A stretch of 64,000 bases of DNA from a virus (lineage: Duplodnaviria; Caudoviricetes): positions 24,407 to 88,406 of the IMG/VR virus record IMGVR_UViG_3300014613_000021; one strand, written 5' to 3'. Within the stretch, counting starts at the first letter, position 1. Every line of letters starts with the position of its first letter. Made by a program: the position numbers and the translations under genes. Below are positions 20,041 through 58,500 of this stretch, piece after piece. A model generated the notes under the pieces. The model was not told where the DNA came from, searched no databases, and saw only the letters and a list, made by a program, of their open reading frames with translations.

Positions 20041-20751
20041 TTATCTATCAATTGAATACGCCAATCTCAATGACCAATTTTGATTAAGTTTTTCAATATT
20101 GGGATTTGGATATTTATTCCAATATTCAACAGAATAAACACATTTTATTAACAGTTTTTTCAACAAATTGCAAGTAATTTGAAAATCACAATCAATATCG
20201 TAATCAGAGAAATCGTAAATATTTGGTTTGTAAAAGAAAATCAACTCGGCGAAAATCCTGTCTGAAATATTTTGTTTCAACTTCGGTCGGATAGATAACC
20301 GTATTCTGTTCTGTTCATCAATATCTGAAACAAAAACAGTCTTTTCATATAAAATAGCTGCACTAATAGAATATTTTGCCCTTTGCCTTTTTAGGAATAA
20401 ATATTTTAGTCCAAATAAACCATAATTTTTACTCTTAATATCCTTTATTTCATTAACCCTATACTGGTATAATACAAACGGACTTAAGGTTGATTGTGGC
20501 TTGTAATCAACCTGAAAATATATCTTTAAATCTCTATTTGTTACCCTATTCTCATTTTCTGAATATAGAAATTCACACCCCGTTGAATATTCAAATAACG
20601 AATCCTTTCTTATAACCTCAAATAAACTGTTTAAATTCAAGTTTTGTATCTGTCCTAATGACAATCTACCTCCGGTTTCAAAACTTAGTTTAAATTGAGA
20701 AAAACAAGGTATAAAGGAAAATAGCAATATAGATAAGAAAACAAACCTCAT
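20041..20751 (-). CDS. outer-membrane beta-barrel protein (DUF481/YdiY-like) with signal peptide
   Basis: MRFVFLSILLFSFIPCFS|Q signal peptide; alternating amphipathic strands; C-terminal LRLAYSI. Confidence 0.65.
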   Translation of the reverse strand: MRFVFLSILLFSFIPCFSQFKLSFETGGRLSLGQIQNLNLNSLFEVIRKDSLFEYSTGCEFLYSENENRVTNRDLKIYFQVDYKPQSTLSPFVLYQYRVNEIKDIKSKNYGLFGLKYLFLKRQRAKYSISAAILYEKTVFVSDIDEQNRIRLSIRPKLKQNISDRIFAELIFFYKPNIYDFSDYDIDCDFQITCNLLKKLLIKCVYSVEYWNKYPNPNIEKLNQNWSLRLAYSIDR

Positions 20752-21753: not shown

Positions 21754-24537
21754 TTAACCTTCGTACATAACTGTCAACCATCCACGGTTAGGAGGTGTTC
21801 CTGGGGGTGTTACATAAGTTCCCCAAGAACCCCCTGAATTTCTTATCAAAACAACCCTATTCCCAATAGATTGAAGAGAGCTTATTCCAAAATAACTTGA
21901 ACCATCTGAAATTACAGAAGGTGTCATTAAAAAATTAGCGGCGAAATCATCCCATATTTGAACGCCAATAATTCTGCTTTTTAAAACATCAATAGGGTTA
22001 CCTTCGGCATCGTTTCCAAGTGGAACATCATGTGTTGCATCATTTAATAAATCCCAGTCTCCAATAGTAACAACTTTCGTTTTAAGTCCTACATTGCCTG
22101 TAATAACTTCTTCTTCTGCTACATAAATAGCATCTGGAACGTGAATATTACCTAAAACATTTGATTCCTGAATAATTGTTTCACCTCCAACATTACCAAC
22201 CGGAAGATCATTATAATATAAATCCCATCCTGTTTCATATCCTTTGTATCCAAAATCAATTAATTGTAATCCAAAACCAGTTAAATCAGTATTAAAATAA
22301 ACCTCAATATACTGAGCTTGTGAATCGGGGTTTCCAAGTCCATCGTCAATATAAACAAGTCTTACTTTATCCCATCTCGTTGACCCTGTAAACATATTTC
22401 TATCCAAAGTAAATCCACCATAAGCGTCAGACCAAAATGAATCAACCCTTATTGTTAAGTAATCTGGAGCGTAAACGCCTCCCGCAATATAAAGGTTAAT
22501 AATTGCCTGCCCCCGTCCAGAACCAAGAATATTTTTCGCAACTCTTCTCCAAACACCCGCTCCATTTGTATTCGCTGAATATTGTTGCTTCGTTATTTCA
22601 TTAGTTGAGTTTAATATCCAGTCAGTTGCATCAAAAATACACTTTACAAAGTATCCGGCAGGAGAATAACTAACAAAACTGTCAATTTCTTCTGTATATT
22701 CTCTTAGTAAAACATAACTTGATGGACTGACATAATCTGTAACAATCTTTATAGTACATCCGTTAAAATCAGCTATTGCCTGATTAAAATGAAGTATAAA
22801 GTTGTTTCCGTTAATGCAAGAATCACCGTCTACATTTGTTTTCTTTATATTAATGTACATGTCAGAAGAAAGGGTTATCCCATTTCCTTTAATCACTTGA
22901 TACTGATAACTACTTCCTACTGTCAAATGAACAACAGAAACGGCAGGATCAAGCATTAATTCCTGAACACCAAATAAATCACCTGTTTCAAGACCGGCTA
23001 ATCTGTTATAATAACTTCTTGAACTCGGTATTAATTCAATATAACCGTCATCCAGATCAGGTAAAGCTGAAGGTTCATAGGTTTTTCTGTTTCTGTCAAG
23101 TGGATTGAGATTCAGTACACCATTCTCATCATAAGAAGTTTCATCATAGTAACCTGAAATTATATCATCCGGTAAAACTGTCCACTCAGTGTATTCCCTG
23201 AATTTCTTATAACGATATTTGATATTATACTTATAAACAACAGAAGCTGAAGGAACAAGTAAAAATAACTTTCCAAACGCTTTATTTATCGGAAAAGTAA
23301 ATACGTTATCTATCTGCTCAATCTCTGTATCTGCCTCATCGTACCAAGCCTGTATTTGAATTTCTTCAACATCCGGAACAATTATTATTTCATCTACTGA
23401 TTCTTCATAATCGTCTATGTCTAATGAATCAACTGTAATTAATAAAGAACCTCCAGATTTTATGCTTGAAATAACTGTTTTCCAACTTCCATTTTTAGCA
23501 TAAAGCCTCCAACCGTTAAAATCTCCATCCGTAAAATTTATAAATCCATCAGCGTCTTTATACCTTCCGTTATCACAGTTTGTTATTGTAAATTTTCTTA
23601 ATTCAGGGGAATAACTCCAATCAAAGGTTCTTATCCCCCATCCTATCATTACCTGATTTTTTACTCTGGGGGAAAATGGATTATCATATTTTACACTTTC
23701 AATACCGATAACTGAGTTTACTGTTGTTTTATCTATATACCATAAATCATAACCAACCTTTGTTCTCCAAAAGTCAGTTCTTTTGTCATGTATTGTAATA
23801 ACTCCAGAATCATTTTTTACTCTTGCAATATAAAATTCTTCATCAGTTAAAGTTATTGTCGGAGGAACATTTGGTGTTAAGGGGTCTTCTGCAACTAATC
23901 CACCAGCCGCAACCGTAAAAGCAATACAACTGTCATATTGAAATATTTCTTTTTCATCAGAAATAGGAACCGCATCAGGAGAAAATGTGCCAATAACTGA
24001 ATATTCCAAATCAGTTTCAGCCTGAAAAACACCTGAAAGAACAACATTATTGTCGTCTATTACCTCAACAACATCATATTCTAAAATGTTAAGTGTAGAA
24101 CCGTAAAACTTAATTCTTGCCGGAAAATTAGGCTGACCTCTCAAAACGTCCTCAAAAGCTGTTCCTGTTCCAGTTAAATTCCCGTTCGCATCAATAGAAA
24201 CTGTTCCGGTTTCTTTAGGTGAATATTCGTGTTTTATTTTAATCCAATACCAATCCCCTCCTGCCGGAATTGCTATATCAGATTGTGGGTTTTTTACAAT
24301 AATTAAACCATTCTTGTCAATAGCATAAGAAGTATTAACTATCTTAACTTCACCAGAACCAGAAGTTTCAACTTTAAAATTATTTAAAACTGAATCATCT
24401 TTTGTTTTGATAATTCCAAAACTAAAAGAATTATCAAGCAAACTTTTTCTGTATCCCTCATCAACGATAAATTGAATCAGTCTATTAAGTTCCTGTTTTT
24501 CAAGAAAACAATCCGTACTAAATTTCAAATATGACAT
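21754..24537 (-). CDS. large baseplate/tail-fibre-associated protein
   Basis: 927 aa, beta-rich and acidic, downstream of baseplate J; no signal peptide. Confidence 0.6.
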   Translation of the reverse strand: MSYLKFSTDCFLEKQELNRLIQFIVDEGYRKSLLDNSFSFGIIKTKDDSVLNNFKVETSGSGEVKIVNTSYAIDKNGLIIVKNPQSDIAIPAGGDWYWIKIKHEYSPKETGTVSIDANGNLTGTGTAFEDVLRGQPNFPARIKFYGSTLNILEYDVVEVIDDNNVVLSGVFQAETDLEYSVIGTFSPDAVPISDEKEIFQYDSCIAFTVAAGGLVAEDPLTPNVPPTITLTDEEFYIARVKNDSGVITIHDKRTDFWRTKVGYDLWYIDKTTVNSVIGIESVKYDNPFSPRVKNQVMIGWGIRTFDWSYSPELRKFTITNCDNGRYKDADGFINFTDGDFNGWRLYAKNGSWKTVISSIKSGGSLLITVDSLDIDDYEESVDEIIIVPDVEEIQIQAWYDEADTEIEQIDNVFTFPINKAFGKLFLLVPSASVVYKYNIKYRYKKFREYTEWTVLPDDIISGYYDETSYDENGVLNLNPLDRNRKTYEPSALPDLDDGYIELIPSSRSYYNRLAGLETGDLFGVQELMLDPAVSVVHLTVGSSYQYQVIKGNGITLSSDMYINIKKTNVDGDSCINGNNFILHFNQAIADFNGCTIKIVTDYVSPSSYVLLREYTEEIDSFVSYSPAGYFVKCIFDATDWILNSTNEITKQQYSANTNGAGVWRRVAKNILGSGRGQAIINLYIAGGVYAPDYLTIRVDSFWSDAYGGFTLDRNMFTGSTRWDKVRLVYIDDGLGNPDSQAQYIEVYFNTDLTGFGLQLIDFGYKGYETGWDLYYNDLPVGNVGGETIIQESNVLGNIHVPDAIYVAEEEVITGNVGLKTKVVTIGDWDLLNDATHDVPLGNDAEGNPIDVLKSRIIGVQIWDDFAANFLMTPSVISDGSSYFGISSLQSIGNRVVLIRNSGGSWGTYVTPPGTPPNRGWLTVMYEG

Positions 24538-24538
24538 A

Positions 24539-26158
24539 TCAAATGAATTTATTTTTTATTGTTGAATTATACGGTATCAAATATTCTCTTATTATCTGTT
24601 CCACCTGATCATCTGAATATTTTCCACTATTATTTTTTAACCATGTCAAAATTAAATTTTTTACACCTAAAAACCCAAAAGATTGATCAGTAACCAATGG
24701 TCTCACTTTAAAATCCCATACTTTAATTGTACTTGAAAAAGCCTCTGAATTATTATTAAGTATCAAAACAGGAACAATATAACATGGATTTACAGAACCA
24801 AACTTTAAGTGCTCTCCATACCCTATATTTAATGTCCCTTCTAATGACGGTAACAATGATTTATCTTTATTAAAAATGACACCCCTTATAAAATACCATG
24901 TATCAACTATGTTTAACTGTATTCTATTAAAAAACAACCCTACTCCAACTTCTAATGCTCCTGTAACCGCATTATACAAACTTATCATATTATCATTTAT
25001 ATCATAAGCTGCAACAGCAAAAGATATATTCTGAACAAGAGTTTCTTGTTTTACCAAAAATGTTATTTCATAATCAACTGTATTATCAACCTTTATTTTT
25101 TTACTTAAATCACTTCCATCTGGAAAAATACCGGACTGTTCATTTAAAGGAACCCCTGTTATTTGTAAAACATCCCTGCCTCCATCTGTTACAATAGAAC
25201 AATAAGAATCATTATTTAAAGGATAGTTGTTTAAATCAACAAAATCCTGTGTATTCTCATAACCCTTTATAACATTAAACATATTTTTTATTCCTCTGTA
25301 CATCGGGGAGGAACTTCCAATATTAAACCCTATCTTCCAGGGTTCAACTAAAGAAAAAATAAATTCATCACATTCTTTTTTACAAAGAAGTCTCAATAAT
25401 TCACCGCTAACTTGTCTTCCACTATCCTCACTTGAAACAGCAACTTGTAATGTCCCCCTAAACCTAAACTCATTATAAAGGTTATTAACCAAATAAATCA
25501 AATCTTCTTGTTCAATTGAATCACATACAAACAAACCCTTATTCCTTACATATTCTGTTAATAATTGTTGATTTCCTGTAAAATTTTCAAATTGTCTTAC
25601 ATAATTTACAAATAATGAAAAATAACAAGTTATTGATCTCCAAAAATTCAAATAATCTTTGTCTTCCCAATTGAAATTATTATTTTCCCCCCTTATAATA
25701 TATTCAGGAACAATACCAGGTTTGTAAATTTTTTCAAGAACATTTATGCACCAATTAAGAACATCTATTGAAGCACATGAAAAAAATTGAGCAAAAATAC
25801 TGTTATTATAAACAGCAGGACATTCAGAACTTACATACTGTCCTTGCAAAGTTATATCGTCAAACTCTAATTCACCTGAATGATCAGTACCAGACCTTAT
25901 ATATCTATATTCAACAAAAAAGGCAAATGTAGGTTCTGTTTGAACCGCTGATACATTTGCTGTTGTTAATTCAATCCATGCAGACCAGTTTATTGCATCA
26001 ACTTTATACCGAAATTCTTTATAAAAATACCTCGTAGCAGTTTCACCAACAACAGTGTCAATAAAATCACTAAGCAAAAGTAACCCAATCAAGGGAACCT
26101 CTACTTGAATAACTAAAACATCACCAATCTCAGTTGTTCTATTTTCTATTACTGCCAT
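24539..26158 (-). CDS. baseplate wedge/tail structural protein
   Basis: 539 aa; position in baseplate operon. Confidence 0.55.
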   Translation of the reverse strand: MAVIENRTTEIGDVLVIQVEVPLIGLLLLSDFIDTVVGETATRYFYKEFRYKVDAINWSAWIELTTANVSAVQTEPTFAFFVEYRYIRSGTDHSGELEFDDITLQGQYVSSECPAVYNNSIFAQFFSCASIDVLNWCINVLEKIYKPGIVPEYIIRGENNNFNWEDKDYLNFWRSITCYFSLFVNYVRQFENFTGNQQLLTEYVRNKGLFVCDSIEQEDLIYLVNNLYNEFRFRGTLQVAVSSEDSGRQVSGELLRLLCKKECDEFIFSLVEPWKIGFNIGSSSPMYRGIKNMFNVIKGYENTQDFVDLNNYPLNNDSYCSIVTDGGRDVLQITGVPLNEQSGIFPDGSDLSKKIKVDNTVDYEITFLVKQETLVQNISFAVAAYDINDNMISLYNAVTGALEVGVGLFFNRIQLNIVDTWYFIRGVIFNKDKSLLPSLEGTLNIGYGEHLKFGSVNPCYIVPVLILNNNSEAFSSTIKVWDFKVRPLVTDQSFGFLGVKNLILTWLKNNSGKYSDDQVEQIIREYLIPYNSTIKNKFI

Positions 26159-27399
26159 TAATTTACAGACTGTGAAACTTCATAAAAATAATTGCCTCTA
26201 CGTTGTAATATTATAATATCATCAGGAGTATAAGCAAAGGTATTACTTATCTTCAAATTTTTACCTTTTACAAGTCCATTGGTTGCTTTTGTTCCGGTAA
26301 ACTCAATATAAATCAATGCCCAATCTGGAACAGTAGACGCAATATCAATGCTATCTATATCTGCTGTTCCTGAAATAACAAAATTATTATATAAACCTAA
26401 TGTTACTGTTGCTGCGCTCGCAACTGTATCACAATCAATTGATGTTATTACTTTATTACATTGAAACAAACCTGATGTCCACAAATTTCCCGTAATCTTT
26501 GTCGTGTCTTCTGTAATATTAAAAAGGGTTGAGCTTGAATAATCAAAAATAAGTCCCGTCTTAAATACCATTGAGTTCTGTTGAACCCTATACTGATTAA
26601 TACCAGAACAAATAAATTCAATAGTATTACTTACAGAACCACCAATTCCTGTTGTAGAACTTGAACGATAAGGTATTAGAGAAGGAACCGTAGATGATGC
26701 CCCAGTTTCCAACAATTCAATTCCATCATTAGCATTAGAAAATATTTTTGTAGGAGTTAAATACCAGGACTTAACATCATTTAAGTAAAACAGTAACGTA
26801 TCGTCAGTTAAATTAGTTATCCATTCATCATCTCCAAAATGAATACCATAAGTTGATTTATCTCCAACAGGAACAAATAAATTAGCTGTTGTCATTAAAA
26901 CACCCTTTCCCTTAATGGTATCTTCTGTTAGTGTTAATAAAGTGGATCGGGGATTGATAATATATGATCCGTTTTTCCCTGAAAGAGTGTCAAATGATAT
27001 ATTGTGAACATTATCTAAACTATCTTGAATATCAGCATTCTTTAAAAACGTAACATCAATCCAATTATGAGTTAAAGAAGTATCGTAGAGTGTAATGTAG
27101 TTGCCGGTCGAATCAGAAAATTCCATAAAATAAGTGTTAATCCAATTGTGGGTTAATGTAGTGTCATAAGGGGTAATATAAACCCCTATTGAATCTTCAA
27201 TATCAATATATCCAACTAATGAATCTATTTTAACTTTACCAGTTGAAATAAATTTAACAGTATCACCTATTTGTATTTGAAGTGTATCTGAACCATGATA
27301 AATAGTTACTGTACTATCAACACACACAACCCTATAAGTTTGACTTATTGCAAAAAATGAAACCAAACTAAACAAAATAGAAAATAAAATCTTTTTCAT
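26158..27399 (-). CDS. tail-fibre-like protein with Sec signal peptide, rich in O-glycosylation sequons
   Basis: MKKILFSILFSLVSFFAIS|Q; 14 D(S/T)(A/I/L/V/M/T) sequons by hand count; fibre-type C-terminus (ASAATVTL...ISGTADI...YFYEVSQS); start moved from 27411 to 27399. Confidence 0.7.
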   Translation of the reverse strand: MKKILFSILFSLVSFFAISQTYRVVCVDSTVTIYHGSDTLQIQIGDTVKFISTGKVKIDSLVGYIDIEDSIGVYITPYDTTLTHNWINTYFMEFSDSTGNYITLYDTSLTHNWIDVTFLKNADIQDSLDNVHNISFDTLSGKNGSYIINPRSTLLTLTEDTIKGKGVLMTTANLFVPVGDKSTYGIHFGDDEWITNLTDDTLLFYLNDVKSWYLTPTKIFSNANDGIELLETGASSTVPSLIPYRSSSTTGIGGSVSNTIEFICSGINQYRVQQNSMVFKTGLIFDYSSSTLFNITEDTTKITGNLWTSGLFQCNKVITSIDCDTVASAATVTLGLYNNFVISGTADIDSIDIASTVPDWALIYIEFTGTKATNGLVKGKNLKISNTFAYTPDDIIILQRRGNYFYEVSQSVN

Positions 27400-27400
27400 A

Positions 27401-28303
27401 TTATTCAACATTTGAGTCTCTTAAAATAATATCAACCAATTCAGTAACATTAGCGTTTTTTGAAAGACAATTTGTTCTTGCGTCATAAACAACAACATTT
27501 TGTGAAGTTGCTGCATAAACATCTTCGGCAGAAGCATGGGTTTTAATCATTGTAACCCCGTCAAGAACTAATTTACCGCCACCTTTCTCAATACAATGAC
27601 TGTTTGCAGAATTTACTTCATTATAAATTTTACTATTAATTATGTCAATTTTTCCCCCTGAAACTTCGATTAATGATTCATCGTCTGCTTTTCTTACTAT
27701 TTCACACCCGGACAACCTTAAATAACCATTTGAAACTGACATCCCGCTTTTTACTCCGGATGTTTTTTCAATATAAAAGTCACCAAGAAAACGTAAATCA
27801 GCAGAAGCATGACTTATATTCACTATATAACCAGCAAGGGTATTTTTTATTATACATCTTCCCGTAAATACAGAAACTATTGCAGTAGATGCTAAAAACA
27901 TTGCCGTAGTTGAAGAAGTATTGTTTATTATAACACCATTCTCAAAATGATAATTAACCCCGTCCTTTAAAATATCGGCTTCATTAAATATGCCATCCAA
28001 AACCCAAATTAAATCCCCTGAAACAGCAGCAGTAACAGCAGCACGTAAGGATGAATAAGATAAAACAATATTTCCTTTAACAGCCGTTCCATCATTGCCA
28101 ACAGATTGAGAAACAAATAAAACCTTATCGCTTACAATAAATGAACTTGTTATTGTACTTCTTAATAACTCCCATGTACTTGACCCGAAATTATAATAAT
28201 ACCATTCATTATCCGTTGTTTTATACCACAACAACTCCGTATTTGTCGGATTTGTTGACCCTCTATAAAAAGATGATATTTGTCCTAAATTAGTTGTTGG
28301 CAT
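27401..28303 (-). CDS. right-handed beta-helix (pectin-lyase fold) tailspike-like protein
   Basis: LFVSQSVGND...SLRAAVTAAVSGDLIWVLDGIFNE cap followed by beta-helix rungs; no signal peptide. Confidence 0.65.
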   Translation of the reverse strand: MPTTNLGQISSFYRGSTNPTNTELLWYKTTDNEWYYYNFGSSTWELLRSTITSSFIVSDKVLFVSQSVGNDGTAVKGNIVLSYSSLRAAVTAAVSGDLIWVLDGIFNEADILKDGVNYHFENGVIINNTSSTTAMFLASTAIVSVFTGRCIIKNTLAGYIVNISHASADLRFLGDFYIEKTSGVKSGMSVSNGYLRLSGCEIVRKADDESLIEVSGGKIDIINSKIYNEVNSANSHCIEKGGGKLVLDGVTMIKTHASAEDVYAATSQNVVVYDARTNCLSKNANVTELVDIILRDSNVE

Positions 28304-28305
28304 GA

Positions 28306-28599
28306 CTAAATTGTATATTGTAATTGACCAGTTAAAATATCTATTCCATAACTTAAAGCATCACTTGCTTGTATTACCAAATCACCGTCTGAATTTACAT
28401 AAAAAACAGGAGGTGTAGATGTTTTGTTTATTCCACCTTCACCCTCAACAAATGAAATACCACCAACTAACTGAACTAATTGAGAAATAAAGGCAGAGGT
28501 AACGACAGGAGGAGGTTGATTATAAAAAGTATAAATTTCTATATCTGTCCCTATTACTGTTACATCAGTGCTTGTCGATATTATTTGAGTTTGTGGCAT
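28306..28599 (-). CDS. small tail-module protein
   Basis: 97 aa, FYVNSDGDLVI fibre-type motif. Confidence 0.5.
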   Translation of the reverse strand: MPQTQIISTSTDVTVIGTDIEIYTFYNQPPPVVTSAFISQLVQLVGGISFVEGEGGINKTSTPPVFYVNSDGDLVIQASDALSYGIDILTGQLQYTI

Positions 28600-28602
28600 T
28601 TA

Positions 28603-29805
28603 TTATGTTATACTTGCTAAAATCGTATTTTGATAACTTATATTTGGCTCATTTGGATAATACACAGGGTTTAATGTACCAGAAATATTACTAATGATAT
28701 TACCGTCAATATCCCTCATTATAAAACTTTTTAATCTTGGCAGTTTCCCTCTCACAATCTGAATGTCTGCATTTGGAGTGAAATATTGGTCAGGCACATA
28801 TTTAACGCCACCTGTATTTTTTACAACTTCCATTAATTCATCCCATTCAACCAACTTATCATAAGTCCAAAATCGAAAATCTAAATATTTTGAACCTGCT
28901 ATCTGTATTTCCTTTCTTACTTCATCAGGATCATAACCATTCAATAATTGTACCCTAAAGTCCCAATCTATTTCTTGATATTCGATATTTCTTAACTCAA
29001 CCCCATATATTTGAACATCATAAGAACGTAAATCAGTCAAAGACAAATATTGTTCTGCTTGTTCTAAAATATCACTTAATTCACCTGCCGTTAAATCAAC
29101 CCCGTTTTGTGTTGCTATCGCTAAAACAGTTTGTCCGGTTTCATTTATCCCCTGATAAGATACCCTTAAAACATTATTATTTATTTTTATAAAAACCTGA
29201 GTGAGTTTAGCAAGTGTTCCGGTTGCTGCCAAGTTACATCCGTCTTTTATTCTTTTCCTAAAAATATCATCTTGTTCAGCATCCCGACCTCCAGTAGCCA
29301 TATATTCATTAATACAGTATGAGTGACCAACTGGTTCAGGCGTAACAGTGCTTAATGTTAACGGGTCAACATTTACTTTACTTCCTGTATCAGAGCTTCT
29401 TACTTTTGCATAAGTATAACCTATTGCAGGAATGGTAATATCATCCTCAAGAACAAACGTATACCCATGTGAACCTGTAAAAGTATTTGTAACAATAAAA
29501 TACTGAGTTCCAGGGTCACCAACAAGTCTTACATAAGTTGAAGATTCAGATGCCCCAAATCTGGCAGAAACACCCATAAATTCAGCAATATCATCCAAAT
29601 ACTGACCATAAGCAGAATCTACCATCAAATGTATTTCAACAAGCGATATTTCTTTTAAAACCTTTTGAGCAACCTTCGCTGTACCAAAAGCAACCCCGTT
29701 CAAAACGCTATTGTCGCTTATCTCAGTTACCTCAGAACAGTGATTTAACAACCCTTGAACAAAAAGCTCCTTTAATTCTGATATGGTAGATATTTTTGTA
29801 AACAT
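28603..29805 (-). CDS. baseplate J-like wedge protein
   Basis: DSAYGQYLDDIAEFMGVSAR, GGRDAEQDDIFRKRI, ATGTL. Confidence 0.85.
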   Translation of the reverse strand: MFTKISTISELKELFVQGLLNHCSEVTEISDNSVLNGVAFGTAKVAQKVLKEISLVEIHLMVDSAYGQYLDDIAEFMGVSARFGASESSTYVRLVGDPGTQYFIVTNTFTGSHGYTFVLEDDITIPAIGYTYAKVRSSDTGSKVNVDPLTLSTVTPEPVGHSYCINEYMATGGRDAEQDDIFRKRIKDGCNLAATGTLAKLTQVFIKINNNVLRVSYQGINETGQTVLAIATQNGVDLTAGELSDILEQAEQYLSLTDLRSYDVQIYGVELRNIEYQEIDWDFRVQLLNGYDPDEVRKEIQIAGSKYLDFRFWTYDKLVEWDELMEVVKNTGGVKYVPDQYFTPNADIQIVRGKLPRLKSFIMRDIDGNIISNISGTLNPVYYPNEPNISYQNTILASIT

Positions 29806-39175: not shown

Positions 39176-41149
39176 CTAATTAATCATAAATCCTGTAAAG
39201 AAAACCTTCGTTATCTCACTGTTCGGAGTAAACTTATATGTCACCTGATACGAGTCTTGAACTTTAGTTACATTAATAGTTGCAGGATAAAATTTCTTTA
39301 TCAAATTATCTGTCGTTGGAGTGATTGTCCTGGATTGCAAATAACCAATCAGCCAGTCACGTACCCTTTTAGTTGAAAGAGTATATTGATTAACTCCCGA
39401 AGGATTCCCAAATAACTGATTTTTTGCATTAATAACAATCTCCTTGTTCAACTGAGAAGTTATGTTTTTGATTTGAATAACATGAGACGTTCCATCATCA
39501 TTTATCTCATAATCATTTCTTTGAAGTGAATTAACATCCTGAACAATAACGAATTTTCCAAAATCACTGTCATATTCAGTGCAAAGAACTCCATTATCCA
39601 AACATTGAATTTTTTCTTTCTTTGAAAGAACATGAGTTTCTTTGTTATGACCAAGTGACTTAAATGTTCCGGGTATCTGTGGAGCCTGTCCGGCAATACG
39701 ACCAAGAACTTCAGCAGCCTTATAAATAGCCGGATAGTTTTTAAACCCTGTCGAAGCCCACTGAGTTGAAATACCTACTCCACCGTGAACAACCCAAACA
39801 CGGTCAGAATCATAATACTGAGCTGTTGGAATTGATCCGTAAGTCTGAGTAAACTTAGTTGAGTCTTCACCGCCGCCAACAACAAGGAATTTTTCAAATT
39901 TCGCCTCATTAACTATATGGGCAAGTAATTTTCCGTTATCAGCACTTTGAGCATCATCGCCATAATCATTGCAAAGAATAAATGTAAAATCATTCTCCGT
40001 AACAGCGTCCAGAACCTCATCCAGTTTTGTTGTGCTGTATGTTTCTGTCCCGCCATAAGCAAGGTTATAATCTGAATAATTGGTCAAATCACCGGCAACA
40101 AACGCCCCTGTTGCACTTGATGTTTCCAGTTTAAAATATTGATTAAACGTAGAATTGTTTGTCATCCACGTAATAAATTCCTGAACAGTTGAAAATTCCG
40201 GTGACTTAACATAAAGAAGTGGAACAGCATCGTCAACAGAAATATTATCCCACGGATCACCGTCAAAATCTTCACCTTTATATGTTCCCCTGTAAAACTT
40301 AAACAAATATTTTGTAGCGTCAATTTCACCAGCTTCCATTACAGCAGCAAAACCACGTGTAAGATTTACTCCATCAACGCCACCAGTCAATGTAGCTGGT
40401 GCCGTTCCTGTTGCCGTTCCGGTAACGACATAAGTTCCTGTATAAGCGTTTGCGTCAGAAGCAACCTCGGTTCCTCTCGGCTGTCTCGCTGTTACCGTTA
40501 TAATAGCAGCGTCTGAAGTAGCCGTATAACCATGTGTTCCAGTCAAGTCATTAATAGCCTCTGCAATTGCAGCAGCAGTTAAATCAATAGAAAGGGGGAC
40601 AGCCGGAACTGTATATGAACCAAGCGTTATCAACGTAGCCCCTTCTGTTATTTTTGGTGTATGTGTGTCACCAGTCGCACCAACCGCTGTAACGGTATAA
40701 TTTCCTGTTGCCAGGGTTTCATCTTCCCTTCTTCCATTTCCAACAATACCTTCATCTCTCATCTGGATTGAAGCGGCTCCATTCGTGAAAGTAAAAACCA
40801 TATTTGCGCAAGTTGTCGTTGCAGCTCTCGCAAAATAAACATTCGGAACACCCCTTGAGGCATATCCGTCCGGAAAAAATAAAGGAAGTCCAAGCAACCA
40901 CCACAAACCGCCTTTTGTTAATGACCTGTAATCAGCAATATTATCAACCGAATAAATTGAATCAAGTCCTGTTAAAAGTTCCCCGTCAATACCAGAACCA
41001 CCACCAAATTCAGCTCCATTTCCAGTATCAATGATTAAAATACGGCCAAATGTTGCCGGTGAAGGAGGGTTTGTTTCACCTGATTTTATTGTGGAATATG
41101 CACCCGGAAGTTCAATTGTCGTTCCGTCAAATACAAATTTAGTTGCCAT
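39176..41149 (-). CDS. contractile tail sheath protein
   Basis: FVFDGTTIELPGAYSTI N-terminus, C-terminal sheath domain; 657 aa. Confidence 0.9.
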   Translation of the reverse strand: MATKFVFDGTTIELPGAYSTIKSGETNPPSPATFGRILIIDTGNGAEFGGGSGIDGELLTGLDSIYSVDNIADYRSLTKGGLWWLLGLPLFFPDGYASRGVPNVYFARAATTTCANMVFTFTNGAASIQMRDEGIVGNGRREDETLATGNYTVTAVGATGDTHTPKITEGATLITLGSYTVPAVPLSIDLTAAAIAEAINDLTGTHGYTATSDAAIITVTARQPRGTEVASDANAYTGTYVVTGTATGTAPATLTGGVDGVNLTRGFAAVMEAGEIDATKYLFKFYRGTYKGEDFDGDPWDNISVDDAVPLLYVKSPEFSTVQEFITWMTNNSTFNQYFKLETSSATGAFVAGDLTNYSDYNLAYGGTETYSTTKLDEVLDAVTENDFTFILCNDYGDDAQSADNGKLLAHIVNEAKFEKFLVVGGGEDSTKFTQTYGSIPTAQYYDSDRVWVVHGGVGISTQWASTGFKNYPAIYKAAEVLGRIAGQAPQIPGTFKSLGHNKETHVLSKKEKIQCLDNGVLCTEYDSDFGKFVIVQDVNSLQRNDYEINDDGTSHVIQIKNITSQLNKEIVINAKNQLFGNPSGVNQYTLSTKRVRDWLIGYLQSRTITPTTDNLIKKFYPATINVTKVQDSYQVTYKFTPNSEITKVFFTGFMIN

Positions 41150-45409: not shown

Positions 45410-46882
45410 TTAATTTGCAGAATAAGCTCCAATATTGATAATCTGAACCATCTTACCAGGGGCTTTCAAAATCGGAGTTATATACATCAATACAACAAAC
45501 CTGTCAGCAGTAGAAAGACGTGCTAAATCCATTTTCATCAAAGGAGCAAGCTGACGAACAGTCCAAACTTCTTCAGCATTTTCAATAAGAAGACACTTAC
45601 TTGTGTTTGAAATAAATCTGTTCCTGTCTCTTATGAGACCAGCAGCACCACCATCATACCCGGCAGCTAACTGTGCTGTCGAAACCTGAAAAATAGGGTA
45701 CAGTTTTGTAGCTGCAACCAAAGTAGTCGGTGTTTTTTCGCTTCTGTAAATTACATAACCTGTGGCTACATAAGTTCCAGAACCGGCAGTAAATTTCAGA
45801 TCAACAGATTGAGTTGCACCTACTGTCAATAACGCTGAACCAAGAGCTACAACAGCAGACTCTCCATACTGATTTATAGCAGCCACACCGTAATAATAAT
45901 CGCCTGCATAAGCAGCTGCAAACCTGTTCAGTGTATCCGTTGCAACAGCCTTCGGGGTTGAACCATCGGCAACAGGAGAAGCCGGAGCCTTTGTACTGGT
46001 TGCATTATCAGTTGTGAATCTTGCAGGGTTTTCACGCATGAATTTATCGTATCCAAAGTCAATCCTTCCAAAGGAAGTTTCAACACCCTGAACACGCTGA
46101 CCCATATAGGCATTTGATACTTGAGCTGTATTCGGCTGAATAAGTTTCTTTGAATAAAACTGTTTTACAAACCCGGAAATAACAGCAGTAGGGGCCATAA
46201 GAAGATCACCGTAAGAATTATTGTTAATAAGGTTTTCATTCCCTTGTTCAACATTTTCTTCTTTCAGATAAGAACCCCTCAAATCAATAACACTCAGCGA
46301 ATCCTGCCACAAATCAAGAGTAGCAAAATAATCTTTCTGTTGTTTGTAAAACCCGTCAAACTGAACAGGAACAACATCAGCATCACCTTTACAAAGATAA
46401 TAATCAGCAGCCCTGAGAACAGTCATTGTACCAGATTTAATTTCCTGCCTCACAATATCAACAAGTGCCCTTATCAACTGAGCCTGATGAGTTACTGACC
46501 GAGTCTCACCAATATATTTGACAAACTGTGACTGACGGCTGTAAGAAGTTGAGTTTTCTTCAGGAAGACCACCTTCTTCAAAAAAACCGCTTACATTACC
46601 GTAACTTTCCAGTCTTTCATACTGCTCAACAGTTGAATAAGCCGGAGACTTTGGTACTTTCTGCCACAGAGCTAAGTCCTGCTCTTTAAATTCCAAATTA
46701 ACAAGCGTCTTTTCAAGTGATTCAACTTTAAGTGAACCTGCGCTTGTTGCGCTCGGATCAGTCCCCAAAAGATGACCAACCGACATAGCTTTGTTAAGTT
46801 CTGCTACTGTCTGAGCACTCTCAACACCAAAACCAGTACCAAATTGCTCATACGCTGATAAATCAATTCCTAAATTTTTCAT
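45410..46882 (-). CDS. major capsid protein (Herelleviridae-like)
   Basis: LKVESLEKTL, LWQKVPKSPAYSTVEQY, QLAPLMKMDLA; follows protease and scaffold. Confidence 0.88.
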   Translation of the reverse strand: MKNLGIDLSAYEQFGTGFGVESAQTVAELNKAMSVGHLLGTDPSATSAGSLKVESLEKTLVNLEFKEQDLALWQKVPKSPAYSTVEQYERLESYGNVSGFFEEGGLPEENSTSYSRQSQFVKYIGETRSVTHQAQLIRALVDIVRQEIKSGTMTVLRAADYYLCKGDADVVPVQFDGFYKQQKDYFATLDLWQDSLSVIDLRGSYLKEENVEQGNENLINNNSYGDLLMAPTAVISGFVKQFYSKKLIQPNTAQVSNAYMGQRVQGVETSFGRIDFGYDKFMRENPARFTTDNATSTKAPASPVADGSTPKAVATDTLNRFAAAYAGDYYYGVAAINQYGESAVVALGSALLTVGATQSVDLKFTAGSGTYVATGYVIYRSEKTPTTLVAATKLYPIFQVSTAQLAAGYDGGAAGLIRDRNRFISNTSKCLLIENAEEVWTVRQLAPLMKMDLARLSTADRFVVLMYITPILKAPGKMVQIINIGAYSAN

Positions 46883-47837: not shown

Positions 47838-49346
47838 TTATTTAATATTCATAAACTCATCATATTTTTCTTTATTTTCAAATTTCCATCCAGAATAATA
47901 CTCAGGCAAATTATATGATTTATAAGTGCTGTCAAACCATCCGTACTTTCCGTTCATCTCTCTTGCCGTTTCATAAAAATATTCAGGCTTATCACGAACT
48001 CTTTCAATTTTTTTTGCATTAGTTTGCAAAAAATCAAATTTTCTTTGCTCTAATGATTTTCTTTGTTCTAAAACTATTTTTGCCTCAGACTTAGAAATAT
48101 TTAATTTCTCTCTGTAACTGTCCCAATTTTTAGAAATATCAGCAAGTTCAGCAGAATTTAAAAAATAAGTTTTCTTCATGCCTCCACCATACTGTTTAGG
48201 AAGAAATCCAGCATGATGCCACTCCATATTAGGTACTGCATATTCCAAAACACCCTTAATTTCAGTAACATCCAATCCGGTTGCTTTCTTAAAGAGTTGT
48301 GTTGCCTCACCAAGTGTCAACTTACCCTTGTCGTCTTTTGCAGACTCATGCCTTCTACTAACATATTTTACAGAACTCAACCCCCCACCAACTAAATAAA
48401 CATCTTTATCATGTTTAAGTTTAGAATATTTATCATAAATATTTTTTAATCCCTCCTTTTTCTTTTCCTCAGTAATTTCACCCACACTTTCTTTGCCAGC
48501 CTTATCTTCAATGGTTTCCTTTTTACTACCATACTTCTTTCCAACCCGACCAAGTTTACGATTTTCAGGAGTATCCTCATAAATACCACTTTTAGCTTTC
48601 TCCAAATCCTCGTCAGAAACTAAACCCAATTCATGTCCTTTAACAATAATACAACACGCCTCATCAAAACTTAGTTTACTATCCTGTTCCAAAATTTCAA
48701 TATTAAACCCCTTATCCATCATATATCTTTTTCCATCACATGAAATATCAAAAATATGATCGCTTTCACCTTTTTCAATTTCATCTGTTTCAGATTCATA
48801 GTCATAATCAACAAAAGGTTCTTCGTATTCACCCTTCATTATTGAAAGAAATGTGTTGCTATTTTTTGGAAACGGAGTAATAGCAATGCCCGTTATTAAT
48901 GCCTTTTTTATTCGTTTTGGGTTAATGTCATCTCTCTCTAATGCCGTCCCTTCAATACTCCATGCAAGTTTTCTCTTTGACCCGGATTTCTCAAGAACCT
49001 CAGCAAGCTCATAAATCTGTTGCGCCTTTTTTGAATGAGACCACAATTTACCTTCAATATAAAAATCTTTTCCTTTATTTACCACAACAGCCTTTGTTGG
49101 TTCTCCAACCAAAGCCGTTGGATCATGTTTTGCCTGGTGATTATAATTCAGATAACCGTAATCCAGTAATTTATCAAACTGAAACCCGGAAGGCTCAAGA
49201 GTTTCTCCGTCAGAATCTTTTGTCATACTGGACGCAACACCCTTAACCATCATTACGTCTTCTCCGGTTTTCGGGTCTTTCCCTTTTTCAAATCCTGAAA
49301 TAGGTATTGTAAAATTAAATTTATCTTCTTTAGTCTTTGCTTCCAT
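47838..49346 (-). CDS. prohead protease with long modular C-terminal extension
   Basis: [25 protein letters not shown] protease motifs in the first ~170 aa; then [12 protein letters not shown] and an EWHH-containing domain. Confidence 0.8.
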
Positions 49347-50739
49347 CTTCTTCTTTGTTTTCGATTTTATCCAATATGACTGAAAGATTCATGATTAAAT
49401 CCAAATCGTCCATTCCTTTCTTTGTTGAAAATACATAGTTACTATGTTCATCTTCAACAAGCACAATTTCATAAGGTTCTTTAACCTCACACATATAATA
49501 ATATATAATTACTTCATCGCTTTCATAAATGTAAACTAAGTTACATTTTTCAACCTCCAGTCCGGTTTCTTCAATCAACTCTCTTTTTGCAGCATCTTCC
49601 GGTTTTTCTTTTGCATCAATATGTCCTCCGGGCAAACACCACTTGTCTGGCTCAAAATCTGATTTCTTTGTTCTCTTTAATAAAAGAGTTCTTCCTTTGC
49701 TGTCTTTTACTATACAGTCCGCAAACTTAGTTTTCTTTTCTGTTTTTGCTTTTTCAATTAAATCATAATCAAAATCAATTATATAAATGTCTTCCTCATC
49801 TTCTCCTTTACTTAACCCCGATTCAGAAAAAGCAATAGCCAAAGCCTGTTCCCTGTCTGTCACTACCTCGCCACTACCTGAGTGAAGGGTTCCCCTTTTA
49901 AACTCCCCCATCACAGTTTCAAATTTTTCCTTTCCCTTCTTCTCCTTTTTTATTGAAACAGATTCAGGTTTCTTACTTTCTTTCTTTTCAGAAGCCTTTT
50001 GTAATGAATCCTTAATTCTTTTTATTATCCTATCCCTTTCAACTTCATTTTCAAACTCTTCTTCCAATGCCTTTAAAATATGATCTGCTTCCTTTCTTTC
50101 TCTTTCATCTTTCAAATCATCATATTCAAGATTTTCATTGTGTGATTCCTGATTATTTAATAACTGTTCCCAAACATAAATACCTGTTTTTCCCTTTATA
50201 AGAACTTGCCCGTAATACTTTCCTCTTGGTGTATTTGGAAAATATTTTGAAGAAGCAGAAACTCTTTTTTGTGCTTCAGTCATCCTTTGTTCATCAACCA
50301 TCCCTTTTTCAAAAGCATCCAAAATAGTAAAATAAGCATCCTTTATATTGTTCTCTTTTTTATACTGTTCAATAGCTTCTTTTAAATCGGGGTTTCTTTT
50401 TAAAAGATTTTCCTGAGCAAACTTAGCTTTCTCAATCGAATCCTTAACCTTACTTATATTATCAATATATTTTGAAAAGTAAGTTTCATATTTCTTTTGA
50501 AGAATAACCTCTGTTTGAAATGTATCCGGATTTCCGGCTTTTTCAAACAACTCAATTTTTTTATTATAATCCCTTGAAACAATATCATGCTCCTTTATTA
50601 ATTGAAAAAGATCATTCCTTCCCTTTTCAATCACTTTTTCAAATTCTTCATATTGAGTAACTTTGTCCTCAATAGATGAACCCTTAAATATTGATAAAAT
50701 AGTTTCCCTTAAACCCATAATTAAAACCCTAATGCACAA
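49330..50739 (-). CDS. modular protein: coiled coil + DUF6496-like + Nudix hydrolase
   Basis: [35 protein letters not shown] (DUF6496-like); Nudix box [23 protein letters not shown]. Confidence 0.8.
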
Positions 50740-51775: not shown

Positions 51776-51954
51776 TTATTTAGCCAATCTTTTATTATCG
51801 CTATTATTCCGTAAAAAAATCCTGTTACCGCAACTACACATAGAATCAGCAGACCGATTCCCCACCAGGGGGAATGTAGCAATCCGAATGCCGAGTCGAA
51901 AATAATTAATCCGGCACAGACAACTACAAGAAATATAGGTATCAAATGCTTCAT
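51772..51954 (-). CDS. small two-TM membrane protein (holin-like topology)
   Basis: 60 aa, two hydrophobic helices; overlaps both neighbours by 4 nt. Confidence 0.55.
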   Translation of the reverse strand: MKHLIPIFLVVVCAGLIIFDSAFGLLHSPWWGIGLLILCVVAVTGFFYGIIAIIKDWLNK

Positions 51955-52271
51955 TCTTCAAACAGTTCTTTGATCAGATTATACTTAATCTGTTTCGCCC
52001 GCAACGCCTCTAAACGCTGAATAGACATTATACTGTCCTGTACGTTCATTTCTAAATCCATCTGCATATTTCCAATAACTCGATTAACATAAGCAGAATC
52101 CATTGCCGGAGCGTTTACTTCCTCTGTAACGGTTACAGAACCCTTGCCAAATGTGGAAACCGTCTTATAGACAGTATCATTGTTTGCAAGTATAATCGGG
52201 GTTGTCGTAACCGTCTGACACCAAGCAGACAAAACAAATAATGAACAGATAATTGTTAGTAATGTTTTCAT
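51951..52271 (-). CDS. small exported protein with Sec signal peptide
   Basis: MKTLLTIICSLFVLSAWC|Q; 3 of its 4 Asp are in DTV, DSA and DSI sequons. Confidence 0.65.
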   Translation of the reverse strand: MKTLLTIICSLFVLSAWCQTVTTTPIILANNDTVYKTVSTFGKGSVTVTEEVNAPAMDSAYVNRVIGNMQMDLEMNVQDSIMSIQRLEALRAKQIKYNLIKELFEE

Positions 52272-56328: not shown

Positions 56329-56338
56329 AATCAAGATT

Positions 56339-56650
56339 TTATGAATAACTATACCCAACAACTACAACCTTTACATTATTTCTATCAGTTGGATATTTAA
56401 CAATTATCTTATTTTTAATATCAGCCGGGTCTTTCCACCAATCAGGGGTGAACTCTTTTTCCTGAACTGTATCCAAATCTTTATCATAATAAAACCTAAC
56501 AGAAGAAAGATTGTCAACACCAAGTCCATGTTCAACTGTTAATTCAGTATTTGCAACTAAATTAACTTCTATATCGCCAGAAGGTATCTCTAATACAAGC
56601 CCACCACTTGACGTTTCATCTTCAAATAAATTTAACAAACCCCAAATCAT
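56339..56650 (-). CDS. small fibre-associated beta protein
   Basis: LTVEHGLG...KVVVVG pattern. Confidence 0.5.
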   Translation of the reverse strand: MIWGLLNLFEDETSSGGLVLEIPSGDIEVNLVANTELTVEHGLGVDNLSSVRFYYDKDLDTVQEKEFTPDWWKDPADIKNKIIVKYPTDRNNVKVVVVGYSYS

Positions 56651-56930: not shown

Positions 56931-57701
56931 TTAATCACTCTCAAACTTACTCTTTTCAGGAAATAATTTTTCAATGACTTCCTTTAAATTATGAGTCAAC
57001 CCTCTATTATTAAAATTCAAATATAATTTTCCACTAATCAATTCCATTAATTTATTAACTGAATACCCATTGTGTTGATGAAATTTAATAAGTCTGTTAC
57101 CTATATAATTATGTTTTGTTATCACAATAGTATTATAATAAAGTGAATTTACAATATACTTTTTGTTCTCCCAATCATATTGATTCATTACTAACTTATA
57201 ATCCTTTTTACAAATCAACTCAGGGATATGTATATCATATTTATAAGTAGTTAATCTTCTTTTTCTTAATTCATCAAAAGTATTCCTGCATCTTTCTAAA
57301 TAATCATCTTTTAAATTTTGATAATTTTCATCTAATTCAAACCAGTCATCTTCAAAATATGGAGTAACTAATTCTTCACCTTCCAAATTTCCTAAAAGAA
57401 TGTGGTCATCTGAACACCTCAATATAAATTGAGAAATTTCAAGTCTTTCACAACCCTTTATTATCCTACAAATCATGCTTGCAGCTTTGTTGTTCACATA
57501 AGAGTCCCTTGATTCTATAAAAATTGCTTCATCACTTAACCAATCCGGCTTAACTCCAATAACATAAATATTTCCAAGTTGAGGAAAATAACTAACCAGA
57601 CTTCTTATTGAATACCTTATTTCCCAATTATCACCAAATTTACTTGCCCCACCTAAAGGATATATTACGTCAATTTTTTGCATCAAAACCCTTCTTTTCA
57701 A
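56931..57701 (-). CDS. Stealth-like sugar(-phosphate) transferase
   Basis: DVIYPLG, EIRYSIRSL, IYVIGVKPDWL, SDDH. Confidence 0.6.
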   Translation of the reverse strand: MKRRVLMQKIDVIYPLGGASKFGDNWEIRYSIRSLVSYFPQLGNIYVIGVKPDWLSDEAIFIESRDSYVNNKAASMICRIIKGCERLEISQFILRCSDDHILLGNLEGEELVTPYFEDDWFELDENYQNLKDDYLERCRNTFDELRKRRLTTYKYDIHIPELICKKDYKLVMNQYDWENKKYIVNSLYYNTIVITKHNYIGNRLIKFHQHNGYSVNKLMELISGKLYLNFNNRGLTHNLKEVIEKLFPEKSKFESD

Positions 57702-58500
57702 TATAACTTTCCAAAATATTTAATAAAACTAAATACTCACTGTCAAAATAAACACTTAATTGTTCCCACTCGTTTGATTCCTTCAATTGTTTATATAACT
57801 TAATTCTTTTTTCACTAACACCCCACCCTATCTCTCCATCAATAAACCTGTTTGGAGAAAAATGAATACCAAAAACAGGTCTGTAATCAAATGTTATATG
57901 TGAATATTTCTTACTCTCATTAAAATATACAGGCAAACCGTGTTTTTCCTCCACTATTTTAAACAATAACTGTTCATCTGAATCAATACACCTACCAGAA
58001 TTAATAATTGAAATAATTGAATCTAAATACTCTTTTGAAACACGTTCATAATAATCTTTTGTGTGAACAAAATGAAGTCCGGTCAATCTGTCTGAGTTTT
58101 TTCTAACTATATTTGAATAACATTTTCCTATACACATTGAGTGTTCTGACAATAATTCTGAAATATTTTGTTCAAGAACAAGTATATCAATATCACCTAT
58201 ATATGTGTATTCTAATTTTTGTACCGGAGTTTCAACAAACCGTATAGCATTTGGATTAAAAAATTTTTTTCTTCCCCACTTTTCAAGTTGCTGATTATAC
58301 CTTCTTATTAAAAACCTTCCCGAATAAAACCTTTCTAAAATCTCTTTTATATTATAAAAATAACCCGGTTCATCTGTCATTATTTCAACAAAAGAATCCG
58401 AGTTACTCCATAAAACAGAAACCATATAAGGTAAAACAAACTGTTTGTATTTACCAGTTGCAACTGTAAAAAAATTAGTATTTAAAGATTCTCCCACCAT
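57670..58500 (-). CDS. putative glycosyltransferase (GT-A, DxD)
   Basis: YIGDIDIL, DEQLLF, GIHFS. Confidence 0.55.
   Translation of the reverse strand: MVGESLNTNFFTVATGKYKQFVLPYMVSVLWSNSDSFVEIMTDEPGYFYNIKEILERFYSGRFLIRRYNQQLEKWGRKKFFNPNAIRFVETPVQKLEYTYIGDIDILVLEQNISELLSEHSMCIGKCYSNIVRKNSDRLTGLHFVHTKDYYERVSKEYLDSIISIINSGRCIDSDEQLLFKIVEEKHGLPVYFNESKKYSHITFDYRPVFGIHFSPNRFIDGEIGWGVSEKRIKLYKQLKESNEWEQLSVYFDSEYLVLLNILESYIEKKGFDAKN

Follow-up and report, generated by a model that had tools for sequence, protein, structure and literature searches.

A predicted exported, sequon-rich protein built from tail-fibre modules in a variable slot of a myovirus baseplate-fibre operon

The target gene and its position among tail genes

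The analysed stretch of DNA (64,000 nt, hereafter the window) is part of the 88.4-kb IMG/VR virus record IMGVR_UViG_3300014613_000021. All genes of the window lie on the minus strand, and the head, sheath and Baseplate J genes identified in it indicate that the phage is a myovirus. The gene studied here encodes a 413-aa fibre-like protein (hereafter the target) which is located between tail genes, begins with a predicted export signal and is rich in the sequon D-(S/T)-(A/I/L/V/M/T), the O-glycosylation motif of Bacteroidota. Sequence comparison gives good support to the view that the target is an exported protein, selected for dense O-glycosylation at this sequon, derived from fibre modules and belonging to a pool of such exported modules circulating among Bacteroidota phages.

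The translation of the target starts with MKKILF, and an alternative in-frame ATG at position 27411 would add four residues (MLNN). The gene was described in the first-pass annotation as tightly coupled to its neighbours, and the sequence agrees with this: the stop codon of the upstream gene lies 1 nt ahead of the target ATG (TAATATG), and the ATG of the downstream gene overlaps the target stop codon by one base (TAATG). Because of this spacing, the target gene must be co-transcribed with its tail-gene neighbours and is probably coupled to them in translation. The features discussed below are collected in Table 1.

Table 1. Positions in the window of the target gene, its parts, its neighbours and other genes of the phage (nt, nucleotides; aa, amino acids; ORF, open reading frame)
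Feature	Position	Strand	Remarks
Target gene, 413-aa predicted exported, sequon-rich fibre-like protein	26158-27399	minus	ORF list and translation; stop codon 26158-26160
Predicted signal peptide of the target, residues 1-19	27343-27399	minus	MKK, hydrophobic core, AIS, Q at +1; read from sequence
27-aa repeat of the target, copy 1	27121-27201	minus	..DSIGVYITPYDTTLTHNWI..; sequons DSI and DTT
27-aa repeat of the target, copy 2	27040-27120	minus	FSDSTGNYITLYDTSLTHNWI..; canonical sequon DST and near-sequon DTS
C-terminal beta domain of the target, residues 318-413	26161-26448	minus	fibre/tailspike tip type; profile, AlphaFold2 and structure matches
300-aa gene upstream of the target, same variable cassette	27401-28303	minus	without signal peptide; 0 sequons
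Perfect TTGACA-17-TATAAT match	27620-27648	minus	inside the 300-aa gene, ~220 nt upstream of the target ATG
97-aa gene, first of the variable cassette after Baseplate J	28306-28599	minus	no family match; no homologue in L009-L011
Baseplate J-like wedge protein, conserved anchor of the module	28603-29805	minus	PF04865, 8.9e-14; phrog_6, 2e-24
539-aa downstream protein, conserved tail/baseplate component	24539-26158	minus	without signal peptide; 27-33% identity over full length in L009, L010 and L011
927-aa conserved tail protein	21754-24537	minus	without signal peptide; homologues in L009, L010 and L011
885-aa predicted exported fibre-like protein	53671-56328	minus	signal peptide ..VKA↓Q; ORF to 56361 (896 aa)
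Sheath	39176-41149	minus	
Major head protein	45410-46882	minus	
Prohead protease	47838-49346	minus	

The predicted signal peptide

After the initial MKK, the target N-terminus contains 15 uncharged hydrophobic residues followed by A-I-S↓Q (the arrow marks the predicted cleavage point) and has no lipobox Cys. The calls of signal peptides, here and throughout, were made with our own heuristic and not with SignalP. Read in this way, the N-terminus is a predicted Sec/signal-peptidase-I signal obeying the Q-rule of Bacteroidota, so that the export signal ending before Q, which had been noted earlier, was found again. An equivalent N-terminus is present in every close homologue. Gln is located at +1 in three other signal-peptide proteins of the window as well (two of the ..S↓Q or ..C↓Q form and one ..VKA↓Q), and a small-x-small motif followed by Q after the hydrophobic core was found in 23 of the 60 signal-peptide-positive proteins among all fetched sequences. 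A cytoplasmic isoform of the target produced from an internal start was considered and rejected, as the first in-frame Met does not occur before residue 92.

Two of the other Q-rule proteins of the window are described here in their own right. The 106-aa protein encoded at 51951-52271 (minus strand; ..AWC↓Q) contains three sequons versus 0.3 expected and matches no family. The protein encoded at 20041-20751 (minus strand; ..CFS↓Q) is of the DUF481 outer-membrane beta-barrel type (PF04338, 4e-17). Its gene is the last of the tail module, which puts a phage-encoded outer-membrane protein beside the fibre genes.

A Shine-Dalgarno-like 4-mer was found within 20 nt upstream of the start codon in 3 of 66 window genes, against a background of 13%, and the upstream regions are A/T-rich. 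Such a low frequency fits translation initiation of the Bacteroidota type and a Bacteroidota host.

Enrichment of the O-glycosylation sequon

The target contains 14 canonical sequons (one per 30 aa, or 4.6 times the chance density), while 3.05 would be expected from its composition. When the mature protein was shuffled, the mean number of sequons was 3.06 (standard deviation 1.6) and the maximum 11; none of the 20,000 shuffles reached 14. The target has 32 Asp residues, 15 of which precede Ser or Thr (binomial p = 0.002). In 14 of these 15 cases the third position is occupied by A, I, L, V, M or T, compared with 42% of the target residues in general (p = 5e-5). The counts given in the first-pass annotation, namely 14 canonical sequons in 413 aa with roughly 3 expected and 15 of about 32 Asp residues before Ser/Thr, were reproduced in full.

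Strong enrichment was seen in two of the ~75 minus-strand ORFs of the window, the target (Poisson p = 4e-6) and the ORF at 53671-56361 (p = 1e-7), which encodes the 885-aa fibre-like protein. The excess is confined to signal-peptide proteins, i.e., the target, the 885-aa fibre and, weakly, the 106-aa protein, and the ~70 ORFs without a signal peptide are at or below the expected count. Both immediate neighbours of the target indeed lack signal peptides, as had been claimed; the upstream 300-aa protein contains no sequons (1.4 expected) and the downstream 539-aa protein contains two (1.3 expected). The 927-aa protein that follows also has two, versus 4.0 expected.

For the family, sequons were counted in the best 150 of the 1,551 representatives of the C-terminal domain described below, outside the shared domain and with the signal peptide removed. 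The members with a signal peptide (n = 55) contain 307 sequons versus 111 expected, a ratio of 2.76, whereas the members without one (n = 64) contain 170 versus 127 expected, a ratio of 1.34 (Mann-Whitney p = 2e-6). The control motifs in the signal-peptide set gave ratios of 0.52 (E in the first position), 0.88 (N in the first position), 0.95 (reversed motif) and 0.88 (D[ST] followed by a non-permitted residue), which rules out a compositional artefact as the source of the excess. The first-pass annotation proposed to check whether homologues keep the signal peptide and the sequons; they are kept in all five of the homologues found first and in ~55 of the best 150. Gene by gene, the signal peptide and the sequon excess occur together in eight other loci (L003, L004, L006, L008, L012, L014, L015 and L016). 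The signal-peptide members on the high-GC (guanine-cytosine) contigs L013, L018 and L019 show no sequon enrichment, which is expected outside Bacteroidota.

The motif and its biology are covered in PMC12871550, PMC8550257 and PMC8729774. In Bacteroidota, modification of the motif is restricted to non-cytoplasmic proteins and is usually almost complete, and motifs introduced by engineering become glycosylated (PMC12871550). Because only the canonical motif is enriched and the controls are not, the enrichment in the target family matches the specificity of the host oligosaccharyltransferase (PMC12871550). The data strongly indicate that selection has given the target a dense set of the sequons recognised by the periplasmic O-glycosylation system of the host; the attachment of glycans itself is predicted.

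The same data bear on a reading in which the target would not be exported at all. The target would then be a cytoplasmic fibre whose hydrophobic N-terminus has a role in structure or assembly, and the sequons would be a by-product of a beta-rich sequence and its repeats. D, S, T and aliphatic residues are common in fibre and beta-helix proteins, three of the 14 sequons are located in the two 27-aa repeats and two others (DTV and DSI) in conserved motifs of the C-terminal domain, and our signal-peptide calls do not come from a dedicated predictor. However, the expected numbers were corrected for composition and the control tripeptides are not enriched, homologues with the same domain and no signal peptide have the much lower ratio given above, and the 927-aa, 539-aa and 300-aa proteins around the target are poor in sequons. 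Moreover, enrichment and signal peptide go together in nine independent loci, and the small-x-small motif with Q recurs after the hydrophobic core. We consider a non-exported target very improbable.

Architecture of the target

No family was found for the target in Pfam (E ≤ 5), PHROGs or NCBIfam (E ≤ 1), and among 50,697 deposited phage records neither tblastn with the target nor megablast with 22 kb as the query gave a match. A large protein collection yielded five partial relatives, all with a signal peptide. A search with a 4-sequence alignment gave two viral and two genome loci; the latter are unclassified contigs or contigs similar to the candidate phyla radiation (CPR) from metagenome-assembled genomes (MAGs), and are uninformative on the host.

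Two modules of the target are shared with other proteins. The first is the 27-aa repeat with the consensus ..DSTGxYITPYDTTL(T/S)H(N/T)W.., which usually holds two sequons; besides the two copies in the target, there are five in the protein P0003, two in P0006 and one in the 885-aa signal-peptide fibre. The second is the C-terminal domain of ~96 aa. Its profile found 1,551 cluster representatives at E ≤ 1e-3, in proteins of 76-1,272 aa, nearly always at the extreme C-terminus. The AlphaFold2 model of this domain, made from a 48-sequence alignment, is all-beta with a predicted local distance difference test score (pLDDT) of 90. Among solved structures, the tailspike depolymerase gp83 of Acinetobacter phage Solidus matches best with its C-terminal domain (PDB 24qj, residues 592-701; Z 8.2, root-mean-square deviation 3.6, 100 residues aligned), and phage spike, fibre or baseplate proteins occupy the next four rows as well. 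Foldseek against the PDB gave weak rows (E ~0.01), the top ones being all phage spikes or fibres, and 76 models in BFVD matched at E ≤ 1e-3, nearly all of them tail fibres, pectate-lyase tailspikes and collagen-repeat fibres. A search of PDB sequences with the domain profile gave no match. The single-sequence AlphaFold2 model of the whole target had a pLDDT of 33, so no fold was assigned to residues 20-317.

These results strongly indicate that the target is assembled from tail-fibre modules, i.e., two shaft-like 27-aa repeats and a fibre/tailspike tip domain. The fibre-like nature ascribed to it earlier is confirmed by the C-terminal domain, whose family is found at the C-terminal end of tail fibres and tailspikes.

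The same domain was also seen on ~630-aa proteins with signal-peptide or membrane-anchor N-termini at L018:4348-9961 and L019:761-2644. These are unclassified or CPR-like MAG contigs, in which the domain genes adjoin FtsE/FtsX-like genes and show no sequon enrichment. The C-terminal domain may also serve in cellular surface proteins.

A second predicted exported fibre of the same phage

The 885-aa protein, the other sequon-rich product of the window, has 19 sequons versus 4.2 expected, mostly in its N-terminal half, and it matches tail spike and virion structural families of PHROGs. Homologues of its G-rich shaft (residues ~500-800) are found in the tail fibres of phages of Pelagibacter, Roseobacter, Prochlorococcus, Staphylococcus and E. 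coli. Since the tip domain of the target and the G-rich shaft of the 885-aa protein are shared with phage fibres, both proteins consist of genuine fibre parts.

A cluster of sugar-modifying genes (56931-59826, minus strand) lies a few hundred bases upstream of the gene of the 885-aa fibre, with two small ORFs between them. It encodes a Stealth CR2-like protein (a weak match, below the cut-off), an FkbM methyltransferase (PF05050) and a TOD1/MUCI70 glycosyltransferase-like protein (PF04765). Similarly, genes for GT2, GT7 and a methyltransferase are found near the signal-peptide fibre of locus L006. Such genes might alter the glycan on the exported proteins or the host surface.

Relatives in other phages

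Among the best 150 family members, the closest relatives look low-GC and Bacteroidota-like; all of them have a signal peptide, in many cases followed by Q at +1. The members further away, which are high-GC, begin like ordinary fibres or tailspikes. At least six different phage backbones have homologues of the target in their tail or lysis modules; each homologue begins with a signal peptide, and the genes are co-oriented with the tail genes and tightly packed among them. In L006, the homologue lies between gpW and gpJ of a P2-like baseplate; in L004, a podovirus similar to SU10, it follows a fibre gene and precedes the lysis genes; and in L012 it is part of a siphovirus-like distal tail module. 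In another SU10-like phage, the signal-peptide protein P0055 with a NosD beta-helix adjoins a Peptidase_S74 fibre. Runs of three to five consecutive signal-peptide ORFs are present in L003, L008 and L016. In the runs of four to five at L016:696-4703 and L008:7432-11466, both on phage-like contigs, the larger ORFs are sequon-enriched, and one product of the L008 run is an SGNH/GDSL esterase that has a signal peptide.

The all-against-all comparison showed that the signal-peptide proteins share modules solely with other signal-peptide proteins. In each locus examined there is also a neighbouring fibre or spike candidate that lacks a signal peptide, and virions therefore need not depend on the exported fibres. 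Lipoprotein-type signals were seen in P0033, P0136 and P0149, for which wrong start calls are possible; with such signals, these variants would be membrane-anchored. In the 88-kb record no paralogue without a signal peptide carries the tip domain of the target, for which reason the idea that the target is a simple exported copy of the receptor-binding domain of the virion was rejected.

These observations bear on the possibility that the target is a true virion fibre. It would be exported, glycosylated and trimerised in the periplasm and would join the baseplate after the holin opens the inner membrane, the virions and the periplasmic contents being then confined by the outer membrane or brought together in the lysate; the infectious particle would acquire a coat of glycans. 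The tip domain shared with fibres and tailspikes that have no signal peptide, the shaft of the sister protein and the packing of homologues among tail genes, including the position between gpW and gpJ, argue for such a fibre. So do the translational coupling to tail genes and the lack of a paralogue with the same tip. In addition, the variable and shuffled genes of these tail modules are often those with a signal peptide, as expected of host-range determinants, and filamentous phages provide a precedent in principle for a receptor-binding protein exported by Sec. Against it, no tailed phage is known to add a periplasmic component to its virion and our literature search yielded none, attachment after lysis would be kinetically unfavourable, and the lipobox variants of the family fit poorly. 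The comparison with related phages given in the next section speaks against it as well. We regard the virion fibre as possible, yet on the unlikely side.

Extended to the whole group, this possibility would mean that a class of Bacteroidota tailed phages, spanning several lineages, exports some of its fibres or spikes via Sec, has host O-glycans added to them and mounts them on the tail after the inner membrane is breached. This generalisation seems unlikely to us, by a shade more than the case of the target itself. If true, the infectious virion would carry host-type O-glycans on its receptor-binding organelles, and both the assembly route and the modification of the virion would be new for tailed phages.

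A variable slot in the baseplate-fibre operon

The operon was compared with those of three related myoviruses (L009, L010 and L011), whose Baseplate J proteins are 46-48% identical. The order conserved in them is J, the homologue of the 539-aa protein and the homologue of the 927-aa protein. The 539-aa homologue directly follows J in L009 and L010, and in L011 a 117-aa gene lies between them. The target gene and the 300-aa and 97-aa genes are missing from all three phages.

The neighbouring slot, between the 539-like and 927-like genes, is also variable in content. L009 has there four fibre-like paralogues without signal peptides and with a common N-terminus of ~50 aa (L009:12927-17314), which looks like a multi-fibre host-range cassette, and L010 has unrelated signal-peptide proteins of 920 and 386 aa. 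No signal-peptide fibre was found in the examined tail modules of L009 and L011. The target N-terminus has no region in common with any protein of the three phages, so no baseplate-attachment region is conserved; its first 125-143 residues resemble those of a signal-peptide protein of the unrelated contig L008. This pattern is unlike that of a baseplate-docking fibre.

The comparison strongly indicates that the target is an accessory, horizontally shuffled cassette in a variable slot of the baseplate-fibre operon and not a core baseplate part. The first-pass annotation had placed the gene inside the core baseplate operon, and this has to be corrected. It had also argued from the location for a role of the protein in the virion or tail. 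The position among tail genes is real, but it is weak evidence for such a role since the slot varies among related myoviruses. A variable cassette fits a host-range determinant as well as an accessory gene.

Upstream genes and the moron-like reading

The protein of the 300-aa gene, called a beta-helix tailspike before, is probably a small right-handed beta-helix. Its ESM Atlas features are 0.93-0.94 similar to those of DUF1565 clusters, and its template modelling (TM) scores are 0.65-0.72 to DUF1565/NosD/Beta_helix and fibre clusters; both agree with the earlier call of a beta-helix and serve as leads only.

The TTGACA-17-TATAAT match within this gene is the sole perfect one in the window, and at least one match occurred in 16 of 100 shuffles of the window. 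Promoters of Bacteroidota do not follow the sigma-70 consensus. The target gene itself has no intergenic space for a promoter of its own and no terminator of its own, and its GC content (30.7%) is the same as that of its flanks. As regards the marks of a moron, the presence of the gene varies among relatives, and the only promoter-like element is the sigma-70-type match within the upstream gene.

These features are relevant to a moron-like reading, in which the target would be a secreted or surface conversion factor. It would cross the outer membrane through type 9 secretion or in vesicles and change the host surface in favour of the infected cell or the lysogen, through adhesion, decoy vesicles or the remodelling of capsule or glycans. 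The target has the layout of type 9 cargo, with a signal peptide at its N-terminus and a conserved domain of ~95 aa at its C-terminus; this layout, the variable presence of the gene and the sigma-70-type match would suit such a factor. The phage encodes the DUF481 barrel and the sugar-modifying cluster in addition, and Q-rule secreted proteins of Porphyromonas gingivalis phages have been proposed to modify the outer membrane (PMC10367356). However, the C-terminal domain gave no type 9, NCBIfam or Pfam match even at E ≤ 1-5, and it also occurs without a signal peptide in fibres of phages of other phyla, so it is not a secretion tag of Bacteroidota. The lack of room for a separate promoter or terminator, the unremarkable GC content and a consensus foreign to Bacteroidota promoters point in the same direction. 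Type 9 cargo was rejected as a candidate, given that neither the type A (TIGR04183 / PF18962) nor the type B (TIGR04131) models match, with unclassified types being possible. We judge a conversion factor to be improbable.

In the head module, between the packaging genes and the prohead protease, the window also encodes a 469-aa protein with a C-terminal NUDIX hydrolase domain (phrog_1198, 1e-19; 49330-50739, minus strand).

Discussion

We favour, tentatively, the interpretation that the target is a putative exported, O-glycosylated and fibre-derived accessory protein that acts in the host envelope. Late in infection, the target would be exported to the periplasm and cleaved before Gln20, which would probably cyclise. 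The host oligosaccharyltransferase would then add glycans to up to 14 of its residues, which would probably shield the protein from envelope proteases, and the glycan- or receptor-binding tip domain would act on components of the envelope, either during their transit or at the outer membrane. This would probably mask or sequester the phage receptor, so that progeny and superinfecting phages would not be lost on infected or lysed cells. In this scheme, the target would not be part of the virion assembled in the cytoplasm.

The envelope role is favoured because the cytoplasm is where virions are assembled, a conserved docking region is lacking, fibre or spike candidates with no signal peptide are present in every case and lipobox variants occur. 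Several points weigh against it. Expression from a late tail operon, in which start and stop codons overlap, is a better match for a structural protein than for a classical superinfection-exclusion gene. Every module is a genuine fibre module, and the phage has no paralogue without a signal peptide that bears the same tip. In several phages, two to five genes of this kind follow one another, which resembles a set of receptor-binding proteins. Moreover, a soluble periplasmic protein is without an obvious route to a surface receptor, and the signal-peptide calls are heuristic.

The known systems that resemble the target do so only in part. Substrates of general O-glycosylation in Bacteroidota (PMC12871550) have, like the target, a Sec signal and the canonical motif with the right third position, and enrichment is seen only in predicted non-cytoplasmic proteins. 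Unlike them, the target is encoded by a phage, comes from tail-fibre modules and has a motif density above the compositional expectation; phages are nowhere mentioned in that review. Tip domains of phage fibres and tailspikes (Solidus gp83, the pectate-lyase tailspikes of BFVD and tail fibres) are similar in their C-terminal beta domain, its extreme C-terminal position and the neighbourhood of tail genes. Fibres of the gp83 type, however, lack a signal peptide and sequon enrichment and are assembled in the cytoplasm, whereas the target lacks a recognisable baseplate-binding N-terminus.

Exported proteins of the receptor-blocking type encoded beside receptor-binding genes include Lom and Bor of phage lambda and Cor of phages phi80 and N15. 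Phage T5 also encodes an exported protein, Llp, beside its receptor-binding gene, and this protein blocks the receptor (PMC9586334). The likeness to Llp lies in the signal peptide, the position within or next to the tail-fibre region and an action in the envelope on the phage's own receptor, which is proposed for the target. However, Llp, Lom, Bor and Cor are small lipoproteins or outer-membrane barrels, have no relation to fibres and are in many cases expressed early or in the lysogenic state, whereas the target would be a soluble, fibre-derived, heavily glycosylatable protein of 413 aa from a late operon.

The Q-rule proteins of P. gingivalis phages are likewise phage-encoded, with a Bacteroidota-type signal that exposes an N-terminal Gln, and they have been proposed to use the secretion of the host. 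These are five genes of unknown function, for which fibre homology, a position in the tail module and sequon enrichment are unreported (PMC10367356). In type 9 cargo, the N-terminal signal peptide and the conserved C-terminal beta domain are alike, but the target matches no type A or type B model and shares its domain with fibres of phages of other phyla.

In mycobacteriophage virions, the capsid and the tail tube are glycosylated in the cytoplasm by phage glycosyltransferases, on C-terminal tracts. The target is similar as a phage protein of a structural type selected to carry glycans, but it would need the periplasmic system of the host and a signal peptide.

Our literature search found no report of fibre-like phage proteins that combine a signal peptide with an excess of O-glycosylation sequons, and such proteins appear to be undescribed so far. 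An export signal and sequons are hard to square with the assembly of tailed phages. The target belongs with the phage tail-fibre proteins and with the O-glycoproteins of Bacteroidota, and there is a real chance that it is categorically new, which would be so if it is part of the virion.

If the target is a virion component, the assembly of tailed phages would include a periplasmic branch, and the fibres of Bacteroidota phages would carry host O-glycans; this would bear on host range, on recognition by the immune system and on the engineering of phages for Bacteroidota of the gut and of aquatic habitats. If it is absent from the virion, fibre and spike modules would have been repeatedly turned into exported, envelope-acting glycoproteins, an unrecognised class of late accessory proteins for receptor masking or glycan remodelling. 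The signature of a signal peptide, a fibre domain and a sequon excess is simple, statistically sharp and searchable across viromes, and it is also an independent marker of Bacteroidota hosts for uncultured phages.

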